The position numbers and the translations under genes were made by a program. Source: Bacteroidota bacterium (GTDB taxonomy: Bacteria > Bacteroidota > Bacteroidia > Bacteroidales > WCHB1-69). Taken from it: a DNA stretch of 64,000 nt. Positions 1,747-60,609 of the stretch are shown piece by piece (within the stretch, counting starts at the first letter, position 1; each line of letters opens with the position of its first letter). The DNA lies in contig JAEZOU010000003.1 of assembly GCA_023413895.1 (NCBI GenBank), forward strand, positions 62,254-126,253, in the 5' to 3' direction. The notes below the pieces were generated by a model. That model was not told the origin of the DNA. It did no database searches and saw nothing but the letters and a program-made list of their open reading frames with translations.

Positions 1747-4700
1747 ATGGAAGATAAAAATTTCTCAACTCAAAGCGACCATATCATCGAGTCCGATGCG
1801 CTAAAAGCCAACATCGAACAGATGAAAAATATCAAACCTATCATTCCTGAAGAACATCTTTGGCTAATCGCATTCTCCGAAAATCTATGGGGAATCCACA
1901 AAAAAACAGAGGAATTCTTTAAAGAATACAACCACCCCTACTCCAATAGAAATATTATTGTTAACAATATCGTTGATATCACAAATTCCTACTTCAGAAT
2001 TTATAAAGAGTTCTCTGATGAGGACCTAATTAAAACATTCAATATCCTTTTCGATATATTCGAAAAACTTCTACAAGAAAAACTAACTGATGAATTGGGT
2101 AAAAACCTAGTAACCAATTACCTAACGTTCTTGTTCAAAAACTATTCCCTGCTCCAAAATAAAAAGGAATTACTTATCAGAAGTATTGATATTCTGAGTC
2201 AAAATCTCGAACAAAATGAGTTCCGATATATCAGCAATATGGGGCATTTCCGCAAAAACTTAGCTTGCGCAGTTTATAATCCGCTGGTTCAAAAAAAGAT
2301 TATTGCTTTTATGCGCAACCTAAATGAGAAAAACTTGCATTTCTGGGACGAAAGTACACGTATCAACGAATGGTATGACACACATAAAAGCAGATTTTCA
2401 ACTGATTATTCACATGCCATTGATAAATTAGGACGAAAATTCTTTGATTCCCAATATGAGCAACTCAAAAAGGCAGAAACCTGGGAAGATTTAGTTGCTA
2501 TCACTTTTACATTTTCTGACATTATAAACGCTCTCAAAAAAGAGATTGAAACATTTAAAACAATTCCCGAACAATTCTGCTATCTCTTCTACCTTCTTCA
2601 CCTAAAAGGAACTATATACCATCGTGATTATCTGATTATTGAACTAAATAAAGTTATTAAACGATTTAGTACAGAATTAGATGAAGAGCAAGCCATACTT
2701 TCCATGGACGAACTATTTATCCATTTCAAGGATTTTAAAGAATCGCACGTTAACCTCATCTTAGACTCTATCCTCTCTCTAGGAAAAGAGATTATTGCAA
2801 CACATAATAAAAAATTAATCCATCACTTTGAAAATGAGGTTATTAAATTTGGATTTGAATCTCCAGGAATTGCTTATTTGACCAACGATTGGGAACTAAA
2901 AGTAAATCCTGCACACATCAAAAATATTCGTGTATGGCTCGAACTTATTGAATTCGACCCCGAAATGATGAACAAACTACTTTCGGCCTTAATTATCAAC
3001 CTGAGAGTAGGCGGAATCTTTATTTTCGATACTGATTTCTTCCAAAAAGACGTTACAAGACTACTAAACTCCAAAGTATCACCTAAATACAAACAAATCA
3101 AGCAACTTTCTCGCATATTTCCTGTTTTCTTCAATGAAATTGGTGCAGAAGGTAAACTCCGAAATGTTTCCACCCAAATTGATGAATTAGCTCACCGTAA
3201 TGATAAACTAATACATTTTCTCCGAAAACAGATTCATACAGAGGGAAATAACTCCCATATCGATATTACTAAAGAGGTAATTTTATTCTGGAATGACCTT
3301 AAGAAATCCCGATTGGCCAAAATCGTTCCACCTAATGTTTACGAAGAGATCAACCCGCGTGGCGAGTGGACTGTAGGAGTGCATAAAGTGCTAAATCGCC
3401 TATATCGTGCTGGTAATTGCACACTTGAACAACTGCTTGAACTCCCTAAAGAAGAGGTGCAAAAGTTGTCTGAAACAATCGAACACGATTCTCAACTCGA
3501 CGTCAGCCGCGTTTGCCTTATCATCGAACTTTATCAACTTCTCAAAGAGAAATATGTATTTGAAACAAAAGATATTAGTTCTATCATTAGAAGATATAAT
3601 TTCTTTGATAATGAGGAGATTGTAAATTTCGAAAAATATCTCGAGGAAGCAAATTATATTGGCGCCCTAAAGCAGATTTATGGCTTCATGAAGAAACTCA
3701 ACAATATTATTTTTGATGCTAAAGAAAGTCTCGGTTGGGAAAACATATACTACAAACGCCATATCGCTTTCGGAATTCCATCAATGTATGGCAGATACCA
3801 AGAACCTAAATTCGATGCTCTCGGTCTTACATTCCGTCTCGAAACAATGGCTTCTATTTTAATTAATAATATTATTAATCAGGTTAATACTGAATATTTT
3901 ACACTAAATTCTCTCAATCATACTTTTGAAGTAATCCAACTACTTAGAGATGGACTCAGCTTGGACGGAATCTACGACCAAGGGTTTGAGTCTAATATAA
4001 AAATGCTACAATATAGCTTAACATCTAGAAGTTTTACAATCAAACAATATATAAATATTTTCCAATTTATGGAAAATAGTATCAAGGAGATTACTCACAA
4101 ATATTTTATCCGACCTTACGAACGCCTTCTACACACTATTATTCCACTATACGCTACTGAAGAAGAACGCAACGATCCAAAACTTCTTAGCAAACTAATT
4201 GTACAAAAATCTGAAAATTTCTATCGCGAACTCATTTCATCAGCATTTATTGTGCAACCCATTGACAACTTTATCGGAACAATTCTGAATAACCTAAGAA
4301 AACAAATCAATAGCCTTTCTGACTCCGAAATTCAAAGTTTAATGTCGTACGATAGAAATTTGGTTTTCAGTCCTTTATATAAAGAAACCCCCACATTAGA
4401 CAATCAAGTTTTCTTGGGTTCTAAAGCCTACTATCTAAAAAACTTATACCTAAATAAATTCCCCGTACCCCCTGGCTTTGTTATCACAACTGAGGTCTTC
4501 CGCCGAATGAATGCCATTCAAAAAATTCCATCACTTTCAGCAGAAATTGATGCTATTATCAAGGAAAATATTACCGAATTAGAGAAAATTTCTGGATTAG
4601 AGTACGGAAATCCAGAAAAGCCGCTTCTTCTTAGCGTACGCTCTGGTGCCGCTATATCTATGCCTGGCGCTATGAATACATTCCTCAACGTCGGTATGAA

Positions 4701-6642: not shown

Positions 6643-6717
6643 GCCGCGTTCGTCTAGCTGGCCCAGGACGCAAGGTTTTCATCCTTGAAATCAGGGGTTC
6701 GAATCCCCTACGCGGTA
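6643..6717 (+). tRNA. tRNA-Glu (anticodon UUC)
   Basis: Hand-folded cloverleaf. Acceptor stem GCCGCGT/ACGCGGT (1 G-U). D stem GTCT/GGAC. Anticodon stem CAAGG/CCTTG with loop TTTTCAT (anticodon TTC). T arm AGGGG-TTCGAAT-CCCCT. Discriminator A. CCA is not encoded. Confidence 0.9.
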
Positions 6718-6752: not shown

Positions 6753-7051
6753 GTTTTTACCTATGCAGAAAATTTGAGTTTTACTCTCTGACTCCTCTAC
6801 ACGCAAAGACCACATACTTGCTACCAGATTGTCCTCTCAAATTTCAGATATTTACCAAACATATACAACTATCGCATGATTCTATTCCACAAACCATATT
6901 TATTCTTTTATTCACATTCTAAAAACCTCAATTTATATCAGACACCAACAACTTATTGCATCCCATCTTAAAACAAAAAATAGCACTTTCCGTCTAGTCT
7001 TTTATTCTATATTTTTACTAAAAACAAGCCTATTTGTATTATTTTTTTTCG

Positions 7052-15440: not shown

Positions 15441-15536
15441 TAAACTCAGCAAGGTAAATAGTAAATACAATAGTTTTTCCCTTTTGCAAGAGGAATAAAA
15501 TGATTATTTGCGGAAGGATTTGCGCACAAAAAGAAT

Positions 15537-15708
15537 GCGTGAGGGATTGCAGCGGTTATGAGCGCCGGTTTAGTACTTAAGAACTTAAAAATTAGAACTA
15601 AGAAATTGGATTTTAGGGAGAAAAGGTAGCGAGAGGAATAGGCGCGAAATTTGAGCGGAAAGCCCGACGGCGTGCGTTGGATTAGGCGATAGAAAAGCCG
15701 GCACGCCC
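15537..15708 (+). repeat. GC-rich interspersed intergenic repeat, copy 1 (weaker similarity to copy 3 extends upstream to ~15513)
   Basis: Shares three blocks with the copies at 23426, 58824 and 60436(-): GCGTGAGGGATTGCAGCGGTTATGAGCGCCGG, GGCGCGAAATTTGAGCGGAAAGCCCGACGGCG and GTGCG..AGCCGGCACGCCC. It lies between the convergent sdaA and fabZ. Confidence 0.85.
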
Positions 15709-15737
15709 AAACAAAAAAAACAAAAATTAGCTAATAC

Positions 15738-23341: not shown

Positions 23342-23425
23342 GGCCCAAAGGAGCGTAAAAAGGATAGTATTGGATCGAAAGATGAGTAAAATTTTGCAGA
23401 AAAAAAATAGGAAACGGGGCAAAAT

Positions 23426-23589
23426 GCGTGAGGGATGGAAGCGGTTATGAGCGCCGAATTTAGAACTTAGATCTTAGCATTAGAGTTAGGGAATGGTGAA
23501 GAATTGAAGCGAGAGACAGCGGCGCGAAATTTGAGCGGACAGCCCGACGGCGCGGGCTGGAATTTGTGCGTAGGATAGCCGGCACGCCC
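23426..23589 (+). repeat. GC-rich interspersed intergenic repeat, copy 2
   Basis: GCGTGAGGGATGGAAGCGGTTATGAGCGCCGA ... GGCGCGAAATTTGAGCGGACAGCCCGACGGCG ... GTGCGTAGGATAGCCGGCACGCCC. It lies between the divergent etfB and rpe promoters. Confidence 0.85.
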
Positions 23590-23659
23590 AAATAAAACTG
23601 AAGATTCAAAAGGCAAATTAAAACACCGATTTTGATAGAGAAAAAATCAAAAAAAATTA

Positions 23660-58723: not shown

Positions 58724-58823
58724 TTCTCATTAATTTTTCCGAGAAATTAGATAGTTTTCCTCAATGGATATAACTTCTGCAGGAAAAAGGATTGCGCACA
58801 AAAACAGAATGAGACTATTGCCT

Positions 58824-58995
58824 GCGTTAGGGATTGCAGCGGTTATGAGCGCCGGTTTTAGAATCTAGAATCTAGAGTTAGAACTTAGAATTGGATTTAG
58901 GGAAAGATTATAGTGAGAGAATGAGGCGCGAAATTTGAGCGGAAAGCCCGACGGCGAGCGGGTAGCATCGTGCGCAGGAAAGAGCCGGAACGCCC
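58824..58995 (+). repeat. GC-rich interspersed intergenic repeat, copy 3 (5' extension similar to copy 1 from ~58787)
   Basis: GCGTTAGGGATTGCAGCGGTTATGAGCGCCGG ... GGCGCGAAATTTGAGCGGAAAGCCCGACGGCG ... GTGCGCAGGAAAGAGCCGGAACGCCC. It lies between convergent genes. Confidence 0.85.
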
Positions 58996-59005
58996 AAATA
59001 AAAAA

Positions 59006-59521
59006 TTAAAACAGATATTGGATTGCATCTTTTACGATAAAAATTAGCACCACAACTGCGTAAACCACCTTCATAAAGGTACCCAAAAGAAAGCCCACAA
59101 AGGAACCGAGTGCCGCTCGAAACGCATTTTCGTGATTCTTAGCGATCATCTCTCCTATCAACGCTCCCAAAAATGGACCTAAAAGTAGTCCGATAATACC
59201 AAACGGACCGATTACAATTCCCAATAGCGGCAAAACTAAAACACTTACAATCAAACCTATAGTACTTCCGCGTACACCTTGTTTTGTACCTCCAAAAAAT
59301 TTGGTACCATAAATCGGAATTATATAATCTAACACCGTAATAACCAACGCTGTAGCTCCCATAATCACTAAAAAAGCAAGATCCACTTCAAAATTTGGAA
59401 GCAGAAGGAACAACAATAACGATACAAAACTGAGAGGCGTTCCTGGTAATCCAGGTAATATTGCTCCAATTAAACCGACAATGCCCAAAATTAGCGCACC
59501 TATAATCACCAAATATTCCAT
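59006..59521 (-). CDS. DUF456-family membrane protein
   Basis: 171 aa, G/L/I/V-rich with 4 TM helices. The N-terminus ...GAILPGLPGTPL is characteristic of the family. Confidence 0.65.
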   Translation of the reverse strand: MEYLVIIGALILGIVGLIGAILPGLPGTPLSFVSLLLFLLLPNFEVDLAFLVIMGATALVITVLDYIIPIYGTKFFGGTKQGVRGSTIGLIVSVLVLPLLGIVIGPFGIIGLLLGPFLGALIGEMIAKNHENAFRAALGSFVGFLLGTFMKVVYAVVVLIFIVKDAIQYLF

Positions 59522-59542
59522 AATTTCATTATTTTCAAAATA

Positions 59543-60364
59543 TTACAGATTCCAAAAAGAGAAATCAATATTAGCTTCAATACTATTTTCAATCTTATCG
59601 TCTAGTTGCGGAAAGAAATCTATTTTTGTCATTGCCTCCACCTCATCAACGGTTTTGCAGAAAGTTTTTAAAGGTCGCGTTCCGGCCTTGTTTTCAAAGT
59701 AAAAGCCGATAGCTTGATAGGTTCCGCCCATAGGAATCAACAATACCTTATAGAAAGCTTCAGGTACTGAAATATCACAACTTCCAATTACTGAACAATT
59801 TGAAGACACAATAGGTCCACAAACCACATAAACAGATCCATATTGTTGCGCCCAATTGCGCACCTTCTCCTCCAAACTTTTCCAAACACCAGCATTTAGA
59901 TTATGATTTTGAGGACAAATATTAGACAGATAAAAACTCTCTCGCATTGCTTGTTCGTCCCACTTCATATCTCCAGCAGGGGCCATGTGGCCGCGATCAT
60001 AACCTGAATTGGAGTAATCGCGAGTTTCCGGGCAAACACCACGAACTTCTGGGTCAGGAATAAAATGTCGCGCTCGTTCACATGTTCCTTCACTCTCAAA
60101 CTTTGTGAGTTCATACGCTACCCAATTGGGAATTCGCCAATCTGCATTGTAGCTCACCGTAAACCCCTTATGTTCAACAACCTGCGATGTTCTATTTTGA
60201 GTAAAAACAGGAATTTCTAACTTATCTATCTGAACTATTTCAAAATATTCCTTCTCCTCAGCTGCTATATTTTTCTTAGTTTGTGCCAAGAATAGCAACA
60301 ATAAAACAATTCCCAAAACAATTACCAACATCGACACCGCTGGTGATTTTAATCTCTTTGCCAT
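59543..60364 (-). CDS. DNA/RNA non-specific endonuclease (NucA/EndoG-type, beta-beta-alpha-Me), membrane-anchored/secreted
   Basis: The start is taken at MAKRLKSPAVSMLVIVLG (60364), 24 nt downstream of a minus-strand TAATTTTG box (60388-60395). The catalytic motif is SGYDRGHMAPAGD, followed by NICPQNHNLN. Confidence 0.8.
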   Translation of the reverse strand: MAKRLKSPAVSMLVIVLGIVLLLLFLAQTKKNIAAEEKEYFEIVQIDKLEIPVFTQNRTSQVVEHKGFTVSYNADWRIPNWVAYELTKFESEGTCERARHFIPDPEVRGVCPETRDYSNSGYDRGHMAPAGDMKWDEQAMRESFYLSNICPQNHNLNAGVWKSLEEKVRNWAQQYGSVYVVCGPIVSSNCSVIGSCDISVPEAFYKVLLIPMGGTYQAIGFYFENKAGTRPLKTFCKTVDEVEAMTKIDFFPQLDDKIENSIEANIDFSFWNL

Positions 60365-60435
60365 CTTATAATTTTTAGAATTTTGTGCAAAATTACAATT
60401 TTTATTAATGTGAAAAAGATTTATAAAAATTATTA

Positions 60436-60609
60436 GGGCGTGCCGGCTTTTCCCACGCACAAGCCACCGCGCTGCCGTCAGGCTTTCCGCTCAAATTTCG
60501 CGCCTCTTTCTCTCGCTACAATTTCTCTTTAAAATCCAATTTCTAAGCTTCAAGCTCTAAATTCTAAAATTCATGGCCGGCGCTCATAACCGCTGCAATC
60601 CTTCACGCA
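60436..60609 (-). repeat. GC-rich interspersed intergenic repeat, copy 4 (inverted orientation)
   Basis: The reverse complement reads GCGTGAAGGATTGCAGCGGTTATGAGCGCCGG ... GGCGCGAAATTTGAGCGGAAAGCCTGACGGCA ... GTGCGTGGGAAAAGCCGGCACGCCC. It lies between the divergent nuclease and hydF-like promoters. Confidence 0.85.

Follow-up and report, generated by a model that had tools for sequence, protein, structure and literature searches.

In the 64,000-nt stretch of contig JAEZOU010000003.1 analyzed here (the window), an intergenic repeat of ~175 nt occurs in four recognizable copies, the third of which, at 58823-58999 on the plus strand, is the subject of this study. Comparison with many further copies strongly supports the view that its two ends, GCGTT and AACGC, form the closing helix (P1) of a structured element, and a single strand of the repeat is predicted to fold into a three-way junction made up of P1, a long P2-P4 arm, and a P5 arm. 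From its conserved cores and helices, the window family is recognized as an enlarged-center variant of the Flavo-1 motif (RF01705) that is not caught by the Rfam model. The reading preferred here, at a probability of roughly 0.5, is that of a dispersed intergenic element, similar to the repetitive extragenic palindromic (REP) elements, whose folded form would be single-stranded DNA recognized by a putative protein.

Pairing between the Ends of the Repeat

The copies in the window are as follows:

15536-15712, plus strand: copy 1; P1 formed by GCGTG (15537-15541) and CACGC (15702-15706)
23425-23593, plus strand: copy 2; P1 formed by GCGTG (23426-23430) and CACGC (23583-23587); P2 variant GGGATG/CAGCCC
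58823-58999, plus strand: copy 3, studied here; T, P1 to P1′, CCAAAT, then an A-rich tract to ~59010 (nhmmer, 164.8 bits; copy alignments)
60432-60609, minus strand: copy 4; P1 formed by GCGTG (60604-60608) and CACGC (60438-60442); P2 variant AGGATT/AAGCCT
6760-6938, minus strand: fifth copy, decayed; seen only through synteny with the intact L054:2930-3102 (pairwise alignment; nhmmer E = 2.8)

The preliminary description had pointed out that copies 1, 2, and 4 carry the ends GCGTG/CACGC and copy 3 the ends GCGTT/AACGC, and both sequences and coordinates were verified. Since one covarying pair among four sequences is weak evidence, more copies were collected. A scan of one genome per species with the invariant 18-mer GGCGCGAAATTTGAGCGG yielded ~50 copies from one uncultured Bacteroidales metagenome-assembled genome (MAG; CALGTS01), as well as one extra copy on a short contig assigned by binning to Elusimicrobiaceae. 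The other 18-mer matches were chance occurrences in unrelated genomes. The window is syntenic with contig CALGTS010000025 (identity of ~90-93%, and 96% in one stretch), on which orthologs of all four window copies are present. When metagenomes were scanned for a pattern taken from the other conserved block, ~50 additional copies and several distant relatives were recovered, and a viral scan with the 3′ core gave 26 further elements in phage contigs. No match was returned by blastn searches of plasmid and phage collections. Three sets were used: 49 distinct full copies that were aligned (4 from the window, 44 from the syntenic MAG, and 1 other); 85 distinct close copies of the same repeat, representing at least 47 independent loci; and a cross-family set of 121 elements from genomes, metagenomes, and phages, defined solely by the two cores (5′ and 3′) together with a complementary P2.

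Unguided folding of the 49 aligned copies with RNAalifold returned 23 pairs, including the terminal helix, none of them broken and nine with changes on both sides. P1 joins alignment columns 2-6 to columns 193-197; all five pairs are intact in 49/49 copies, and four of the five show double changes (n = 49 copies for each pair):

P1 pair 1 (outermost): G-C 49
P1 pair 2: C-G 47, U-A 2
P1 pair 3: G-C 45, A-U 4
P1 pair 4: U-A 43, C-G 6
P1 pair 5 (innermost): G-C 25, U-A 16, A-U 8

None of 500 column shuffles matched the observed covariation score (0.157 vs 0.048), and pairing fell from 93% to 29-45% when the 3′ partner was shifted by 1-3 columns. All five P1 pairs are Watson-Crick in 85/85 close copies, which represent nine complementary haplotypes (GCGTG, GCGTT, GCGCA, GCATT, GCGTA, GTGTG, GCATG, GTGTT, and GGGTT). 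In an alignment-free test, the exact complement of an element's own 5-nt start was located no more than 160 nt past the 3′ core in 118/121 elements, compared to a mean of 12.7 and a maximum of 23 of 121 when the partner was sought for the haplotype of another element. The three exceptions are L144, with a partner further downstream, and two coding-sequence false positives. Eighteen complementary haplotypes are represented among the 121 elements, including CGGTT/AACCG, GCGCC/GGCGC, CTGTG/CACAG, GGCTT/AAGCC, and GCGAT/ATCGC.

These counts, together with the shuffle and haplotype-swap controls, bear out the earlier proposal that end-to-end pairing is kept by selection: with more copies in a structural alignment, the terminal positions covary and do not vary independently. 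With only four sequences, a single double change could be due to chance or inheritance, but the notion that terminal complementarity in the window is a coincidence of shared ancestry, devoid of structural meaning, can hardly be entertained in view of the 18 haplotypes, the failure of every shuffle, and a swap control near 13 against 118 observed. Copy 3 shares its GCGTT/AACGC haplotype with its ortholog L003, and the double change is therefore older than the divergence of the two genomes. Terminal inverted repeats, the other possibility raised at the outset, are unlikely as binding sites for a transposase, given nine end haplotypes in one genome and conservation of complementarity rather than of sequence.

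Architecture of the Fold

The predicted parts of copy 3, all on the plus strand, are:

58824-58828, plus strand: 5′ half of P1, GCGTT; partner at 58989-58993
58830-58835, plus strand: 5′ half of P2, GGGATT; partner AAGCCC at 58944-58949 (three G-C pairs, A.G, two U-A pairs)
58839-58848, plus strand: 5′ half of P3, GC, and the invariant internal-loop strand GGTTATGA
58849-58853, plus strand: 5′ half of P4, GCGCC; partner GGCGC at 58925-58929
58854-58924, plus strand: variable C-poor core; degenerate 7-nt repeats (TAGAATC/TTAGAAC), then a purine-rich stretch
58925-58951, plus strand: block B; 3′ half of P4, loop GAAATTTGA, 3′ halves of P3 and P2, junction GA
58952-58987, plus strand: P5 arm; CGGC...GCCG around tandem G.A pairs; interior variable apart from a conserved GTGCG
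58989-58993, plus strand: 3′ half of P1, AACGC; then CC (58994-58995), within the invariant CCAAAT (58994-58999)

A single A separates the 5-bp P1 from the long irregular arm. P2, which corresponds to the outer helix of Flavo-1, consists of GGGAUU opposite AAGCCC with an A.G pair inside; it covaries at columns 8/149 and 13/144, the latter being U-A in 55, A-U in 22, and G-C in 7 of the 85 close copies, and another P2 pair is G-C in 73 and A-U in 11. In P3, GC faces GC, with A.G and G.A pairs on either side. The internal loops that separate P2, P3, and P4 are invariant and purine-rich (GGUUAUGA opposite GAAAUUUGA), and the P3 5′/loop strand, which lies outside the search pattern that found the copies, is invariant in 48/49 of them. 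P4 pairs GCGCC with GGCGC and shows pair swaps at columns 29/127 and 30/126. The earlier suggestion that these two blocks close the variable core thus holds, the swaps including GCCGC/GCGGC (some copies), GCAGCGC/GCGCTGC (L095), and GCCCGC/GCGGGC (L033b). Two additional G-C pairs had also been proposed beyond a 2x2 mismatch. These are not real, because the Gs in question pair with the CCC of block B in P2, and the CC of GCCGG pairs with CGGC in P5: G-to-A changes at columns 8/9 are matched by U at columns 149/148, while GCCGG stays constant.

At its tip, the long arm carries a variable loop of 65-90 nt that is poor in C and in which degenerate TTAGAAC heptamers precede a purine-rich stretch; TRF reported a period of 7 at 58859-58891 in copy 3, and the repeat core of this copy gave no fold signal above base composition. 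Similar CUUAGAAU repeats follow a published Flavo-1 copy of Flavobacterium johnsoniae. Beyond the GA junction, P5 (CGGC/GCCG) is lengthened by tandem G.A pairs and is 100% paired, taking the form of CCC/GGG, CCCC/GGGG, and similar pairings across families; its interior is poorly defined except for GTGCG. A clean P6 hairpin inside this arm was considered and rejected, being formed by some copies only, with a variable 5′ side facing the fixed GTGCG. In a long-arm subfamily, the 3′ arm contains an extra 72-75 nt (L002, L016, L040, L033 at ~589-870, L128, L104, and L095), and a comparison of L063:2302-2479 with L107 and L173 includes a 72-nt indel between L063 and L107, such that one locus is short or long in nearly identical strains. 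The 3′ half of P1 begins one nucleotide after P5 and is followed by CCAAAT. After every copy, the invariant AAAT leads into an A-rich, G-free tract of ~12-16 nt (58996-59010 in copy 3), with 65-71% A at +5 to +16 compared to 32% in the background, whatever the orientation of the downstream gene.

Several functional assignments based on individual segments were rejected. A tRNA-like acceptor stem with a CCA end is not supported, as the tail, though CC(C)A-like, is variable and has no fitting discriminator pattern. A hammerhead-like core (UUAUGAG...CGAAA), noticed by eye, lacks the essential C3 and G5, and no Rfam ribozyme matched. The invariant ATG in GGTTATGAGC is followed by frames that, by eye, differ in phase and length among copies, arguing against coding potential.

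Relationship to Flavo-1

The Flavo-1 motif was reported by Weinberg et al. in 2010 and rated a likely RNA (PMC2864571). It is the sole Rfam family matched by copy 3 (17.8 bits, E = 0.37, gathering cut-off 42), the model helices falling on P2 and P3 and the center being handled as a 93-nt insertion. The cut-off was not reached in the window or in 10 loci with related variants; in the Rfam scan of the window only a tRNA reached its cut-off, and a permissive search added only Flavo-1 and a chance match to a small nucleolar RNA.

The two share the 5′ core (U)GCGUGAGGGAUUG.AGCGG, the 3′ core AGCGGA.AGCCCGAC, and helices P2 and P3, as well as their phylum range, many copies per genome, and intergenic location, the present repeat being found at 47 or more independent loci, all of them between genes. 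The Flavo-1 cores GAUUG.AGCGG and AGCGGA.AGC and the outer helix (NNG/CNN and U-A pairs; <<<-<<---<<) are present, with the Rfam alignment placing GGGAUUGCAGCGG opposite GAGCGGAAAGCCC; those core pairs covary in the 85 close copies, and the sequence is near-identical to published seed rows. In the published alignment (PMC2864571), the large subtype starts with U-GCGUGAGGGAUUGCAGCGG and ends with AGCGGAAAGCCCGACC, with the same core, and shares GCGUGAGGGAUUGCAGCGG...AGCGGAAAGCCCGAC with the repeat. The main difference lies in the center, which is ~33 nt in Flavo-1 compared to ~93 nt here, where it includes the GGUUAUGA/GAAAUUUGA loops, P4, and the heptamer-repeat core. Other organisms, some of them GC-rich, carry relatives in which the GGUUAUGAG/GAAUUUGAGCGG loops are combined with a long paired stem at the center, and none of these relatives reached the Rfam cut-off.

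The published model also lacks P1, the P5 arm, and the CCA-type tail, which sit in its unmodeled flanks. In the published alignment, the segments GCGUG, GCGUU, GCAUU, GCGCA, and GCACA are unpaired; in its flanked version, the P1 partner is located just outside the motif, after a short hairpin equivalent to P5, and is followed by CC(C)A. The pairs so formed (GCAUU/AAUGC, GCGCA/UGCGC, GCACA/UGUGC, and GCGCU/AGCGC, with one exception) were observed in F. johnsoniae, F. psychrophilum, Gramella forsetii, and others. Because partners occur in the flanks of published copies, P1 and P5 belong generally to this subtype of Flavo-1; for the other subtype (UAGCC...CCGAUU), no P1 partner was found in the two flanks examined. 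No description of P1 or P5 was found in the searched literature that names Flavo-1.

Constraint in Place and the Question of Mobility

Identity between the four window copies and their orthologs in the related MAG, for genomes ~9% diverged, depends on the segment:

5′ block: 99.2%
Block B: 94%
3′ end: 97%
Variable core: 71%
Arm interior: 74%

Helix haplotypes are identical within all 14 orthologous groups, and mismatched P1 halves, which one-ended gene conversion would produce, were found in 0/85 copies. Together, block identity, constant haplotypes, and the lack of mismatched halves indicate that every genomic copy is held intact where it lies by selection on pairing and on loop sequences. 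The preliminary description had set this pattern against neutral decay, and the window offers that contrast: the fifth copy, which adjoins a tRNA at 6643-6717, has decayed beyond recognition, whereas its ortholog is intact. A truncated ortholog of the L047 copy (L074:13420-13464) retains the first 45 nt, followed by unrelated sequence.

A selfish, nonautonomous element comparable to MITEs (transposable elements of the miniature inverted-repeat type) or to REPINs (paired REP sequences) would need folding for a transposition intermediate, and its helices would be selected among copies with no benefit to the host. Such an explanation would account for the presence of the repeat in one genome at 47 or more independent loci, insertion in either orientation, sequence subfamilies, the truncated and decayed copies, the short/long arm polymorphism, and carriage by chromosomes of distant Bacteroidota as well as by double-stranded and single-stranded DNA phages. 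Published Flavo-1 copies are also found on two short records (NC_006873 and NC_004703), which we take to be Bacteroides plasmids. It is nevertheless improbable: every comparable orthologous site is filled, at ~9% genome divergence, with differences limited to decay, truncation, and internal indels; no target-site duplication was found, as the flanks (T at -1 and AAAT at +1) are not duplications; the terminal inverted repeat does not extend beyond 5 bp; no transposase is associated; and neither the absence of mismatched P1 halves nor the preservation of blocks at 97-99% identity in place, with the core down to 71%, is expected for dormant selfish copies.

Copies in Phage Genomes

The element recurs in phages, most extensively in a microvirus clade of 26 genomes (L318-L343), where in 24/26 it precedes the Rep gene by 22-30 nt, in the same orientation. 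A TAnnTTTG-type promoter and two small covarying hairpins are found upstream of it there. The noncoding region, ~330 nt upstream of the Rep start, contains the promoter-like box TTATCTTTGC, the two hairpins with compensatory variants (GCGC-GGTA-GCGC and GTCATC-TTG-GATGAC), and then the Flavo-1-type element. Within this single-locus lineage, P1 switches among GCGTT/AACGC, GCGTC/GACGC, and GTGTT/AACAC, and P4 changes with compensation. P5 has been lost in one subgroup, and L328 and L336 are without most of the element, which is therefore useful to the phage but dispensable. In another microvirus clade, the element is antisense to every gene (L293:604-688; L316, reverse complement, 3194-3278). 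Three related phages with a terminase-like (TerL) gene (L257, L260/L269, and L304) carry it antisense, 7-9 nt past the stop codon, with three different P1 haplotypes. A role as integration site for Alpavirinae proviruses was rejected, since dif-like 13-bp sites are used instead (PMC3091885).

Single-Stranded DNA or RNA

The preference for single-stranded DNA is based on the near absence of G-U pairs, the lack of a fixed orientation, and the conservation of copies in phages with single-stranded DNA. Across 21 core pairs in the 85 close copies, 1781 are Watson-Crick, 3 are G-U, none is A-C, and 1 is other; G-U pairs (0.17%) are thus about as rare as mismatches and far below the usual tolerance of structured RNAs. 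In one phage lineage, the outer pair is A-C on the plus strand. With DNA energy parameters, P1-P5 were recovered as the minimum-energy fold, whereas RNA parameters lose P1.

All copies are intergenic, and their neighbors are unrelated housekeeping genes. The orientation of 42 host copies relative to the flanking genes was as follows:

Upstream gene same, downstream gene opposite: 13 copies
Upstream gene same, downstream gene same: 13 copies
Upstream gene opposite, downstream gene same: 11 copies
Upstream gene opposite, downstream gene opposite: 5 copies

Orientation is therefore not tied to neighboring genes, and 16/42 copies do not lie downstream of a co-oriented gene. Phage placement is likewise mixed, being sense in two microvirus clades and antisense both in a third and after TerL, the antisense location being conserved even in compact genomes; in the single-stranded DNA phages, the element adjoins the Rep gene. 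No conserved promoter or terminator flanks the copies: TTTG is present no more than 40 nt upstream in only 19/44, position-specific signals are weak, distant relatives have no fixed promoter, and no U-run follows the structure on either strand, so that a dedicated promoter and an intrinsic terminator were both rejected. In the F. psychrophilum transcriptome, Flavo-1 matches lie sense, antisense, or outside transcribed regions, without consistent expression (PMC9723704).

In the 40 nt that precede the copies (e.g., at 15508-15535), a weak and position-variable motif, (T)TTGCGCA(C)AA, ends ~8-15 nt before many of them. It resembles the local -7 promoter box and is too inconsistent to be called a promoter. 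Pairing of this upstream TTGCGCA(C)AA with TTGTGCG of the 3′ arm was also rejected, as variants of one are unmatched by the other.

A close rival, possible on the same data, is a structured noncoding RNA of the Rfam class, whose plus strand, A-rich tail included, would be transcribed from a weak promoter of its own or by read-through from neighboring genes, and whose junction and loops might bind a protein or affect the stability, processing, or translation of mRNA in cis. The strong covariation and the conserved G.A-rich loops are consistent with RNA, as is the earlier rating of the motif as likely RNA. The few wobbles in host copies are G-U on the plus strand (3 compared to 0 A-C); the A-rich tail is specific to one strand whatever the context; and the core folds better on the plus strand than on its complement (-14.0 vs -5.7 kcal/mol), an advantage that reflects base composition, since the z-scores are -0.85 and -0.57. 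The features set out above, namely the scarcity of G-U, the A-C pair, the host copies lacking a co-oriented upstream gene, the antisense phage locations, the paucity of promoter and terminator signals, and the transcriptome, argue against RNA.

Conversely, a number of points weigh against single-stranded DNA acting as REP elements do. Between tandem neighbors, co-orientation is favored 13 to 5, and in two microvirus clades, the sense element lies between a consensus Bacteroidetes promoter and a start codon, as in the 24/26 genomes with the TAnnTTTG-type promoter ahead of Rep. The combination of a three-way junction and invariant internal loops rich in G.A is seen more typically in RNA than in the single-stranded DNA elements known to date. 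In stability, the single-sequence fold does not exceed that of shuffled sequence (z of about +0.4), so that the case for structure is made entirely by comparison between copies. Neither an empty site nor a recent insertion was found among the orthologous sites compared, leaving mobility unsupported, and a partner protein was likewise not found. Over nearly the whole 64-kb window, GC skew is negative, which suggests one replichore; with both orientations present in this apparent single replichore, exposure of the lagging-strand template cannot explain all copies.

If the preferred reading is correct, the intergenic module would fold as single-stranded DNA, in the manner of REP elements, and a protein encoded by the host or by the element itself would recognize the conserved loops of the folded strand. 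Replication, transfer, or the genomes of single-stranded phages could provide the single-stranded state.

Comparison with Other Structured and Mobile Elements

REPs and REPINs are likewise short, dispersed, and intergenic, occur in either orientation, and are thought to act as folded single-stranded DNA. Compensatory change that keeps pairing and vertical inheritance with long persistence at orthologous sites, both known for them, were also observed here. They differ in their GT[AG]G foot, which is absent from this element (it starts with (T)GCGTG), and in forming a simple hairpin as opposed to a three-way junction with large conserved loops; inverted doublets do not occur here. A motif scan of ~1.7 Mb of sequence for REP-associated tyrosine transposases (RAYTs; Y1 HUH) detected one candidate, with different repeats of its own:

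L164:3966-4586, minus strand: RAYT-like HUH transposase gene; REP-like repeats inserted within the reading frame and downstream (3873-3913 and 4246-4310), unrelated to the element

Published tables of atypical Bacteroidetes RAYT repeats are also without the Flavo-1 core, and no RAYT gene flanked by the element was found in the ~1.7 Mb scanned.

Integron attC sites work as one folded DNA strand, and their paired ends conserve structure over sequence around a center of variable length. However, attC sites stand in ordered arrays at cassette ends beside an integrase, with R/L boxes and extrahelical bases, whereas the present copies are scattered among housekeeping genes, have no R boxes (RYYYAAC/GTTRRRY), and contain unpaired blocks that are highly conserved. 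Origins of single-stranded DNA phages and plasmids (the M13 intergenic region, G4 oriC, the phiX174 n′ site, and plasmid sso) resemble the microvirus arrangement, in which the element lies in a hairpin-rich noncoding region beside Rep and the neighboring hairpins also show compensatory changes. Those origins, in contrast, act in one orientation on the packaged strand, while one microvirus clade has the element inverted and two genomes have lost most of it; the dozens of chromosomal copies are also without parallel. MITEs such as Correia/NEMIS are comparable in size, copy number, intergenic position, and complementary ends, but their inverted repeats are usually at least 10 bp and conserved in sequence, compared to 5 bp here, and no target-site duplication accompanies the repeat. 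End sequences that vary while complementarity is kept fit pairing rather than recognition by a transposase.

Within the window, copies 3 and 4 are inverted around genes for a DUF456 protein (59006-59521) and a non-specific DNA/RNA endonuclease (59543-60460). The same layout (58823-60609) is present in the related MAG and is probably a coincidence.

Implications for Bacteroidota

Flavo-1 is among the most abundant small-RNA families in Rfam and has been without an assigned function since 2010. The published motif corresponds to only the inner part of a larger fold, with P1, a second arm, and a conserved tail outside it, and phage genomes, those of tiny single-stranded DNA microviruses among them, conserve the same element. 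A broader proposal, doubtful at present, is that Flavo-1-type elements are not small RNAs but Bacteroidota-wide structured single-stranded DNA modules, that is, a three-way-junction equivalent of REPs common to chromosomes and to single- and double-stranded DNA phages, which would be read by a putative host protein and may help to convert or replicate the microvirus genome. Given the scarcity of G-U pairs and a placement irrespective of transcription direction, it can be asked, and tested, whether these elements are RNA or the REP-like DNA of Bacteroidota. An extended and corrected model would improve the annotation of Bacteroidota genomes and define a target for pull-down and deletion experiments.

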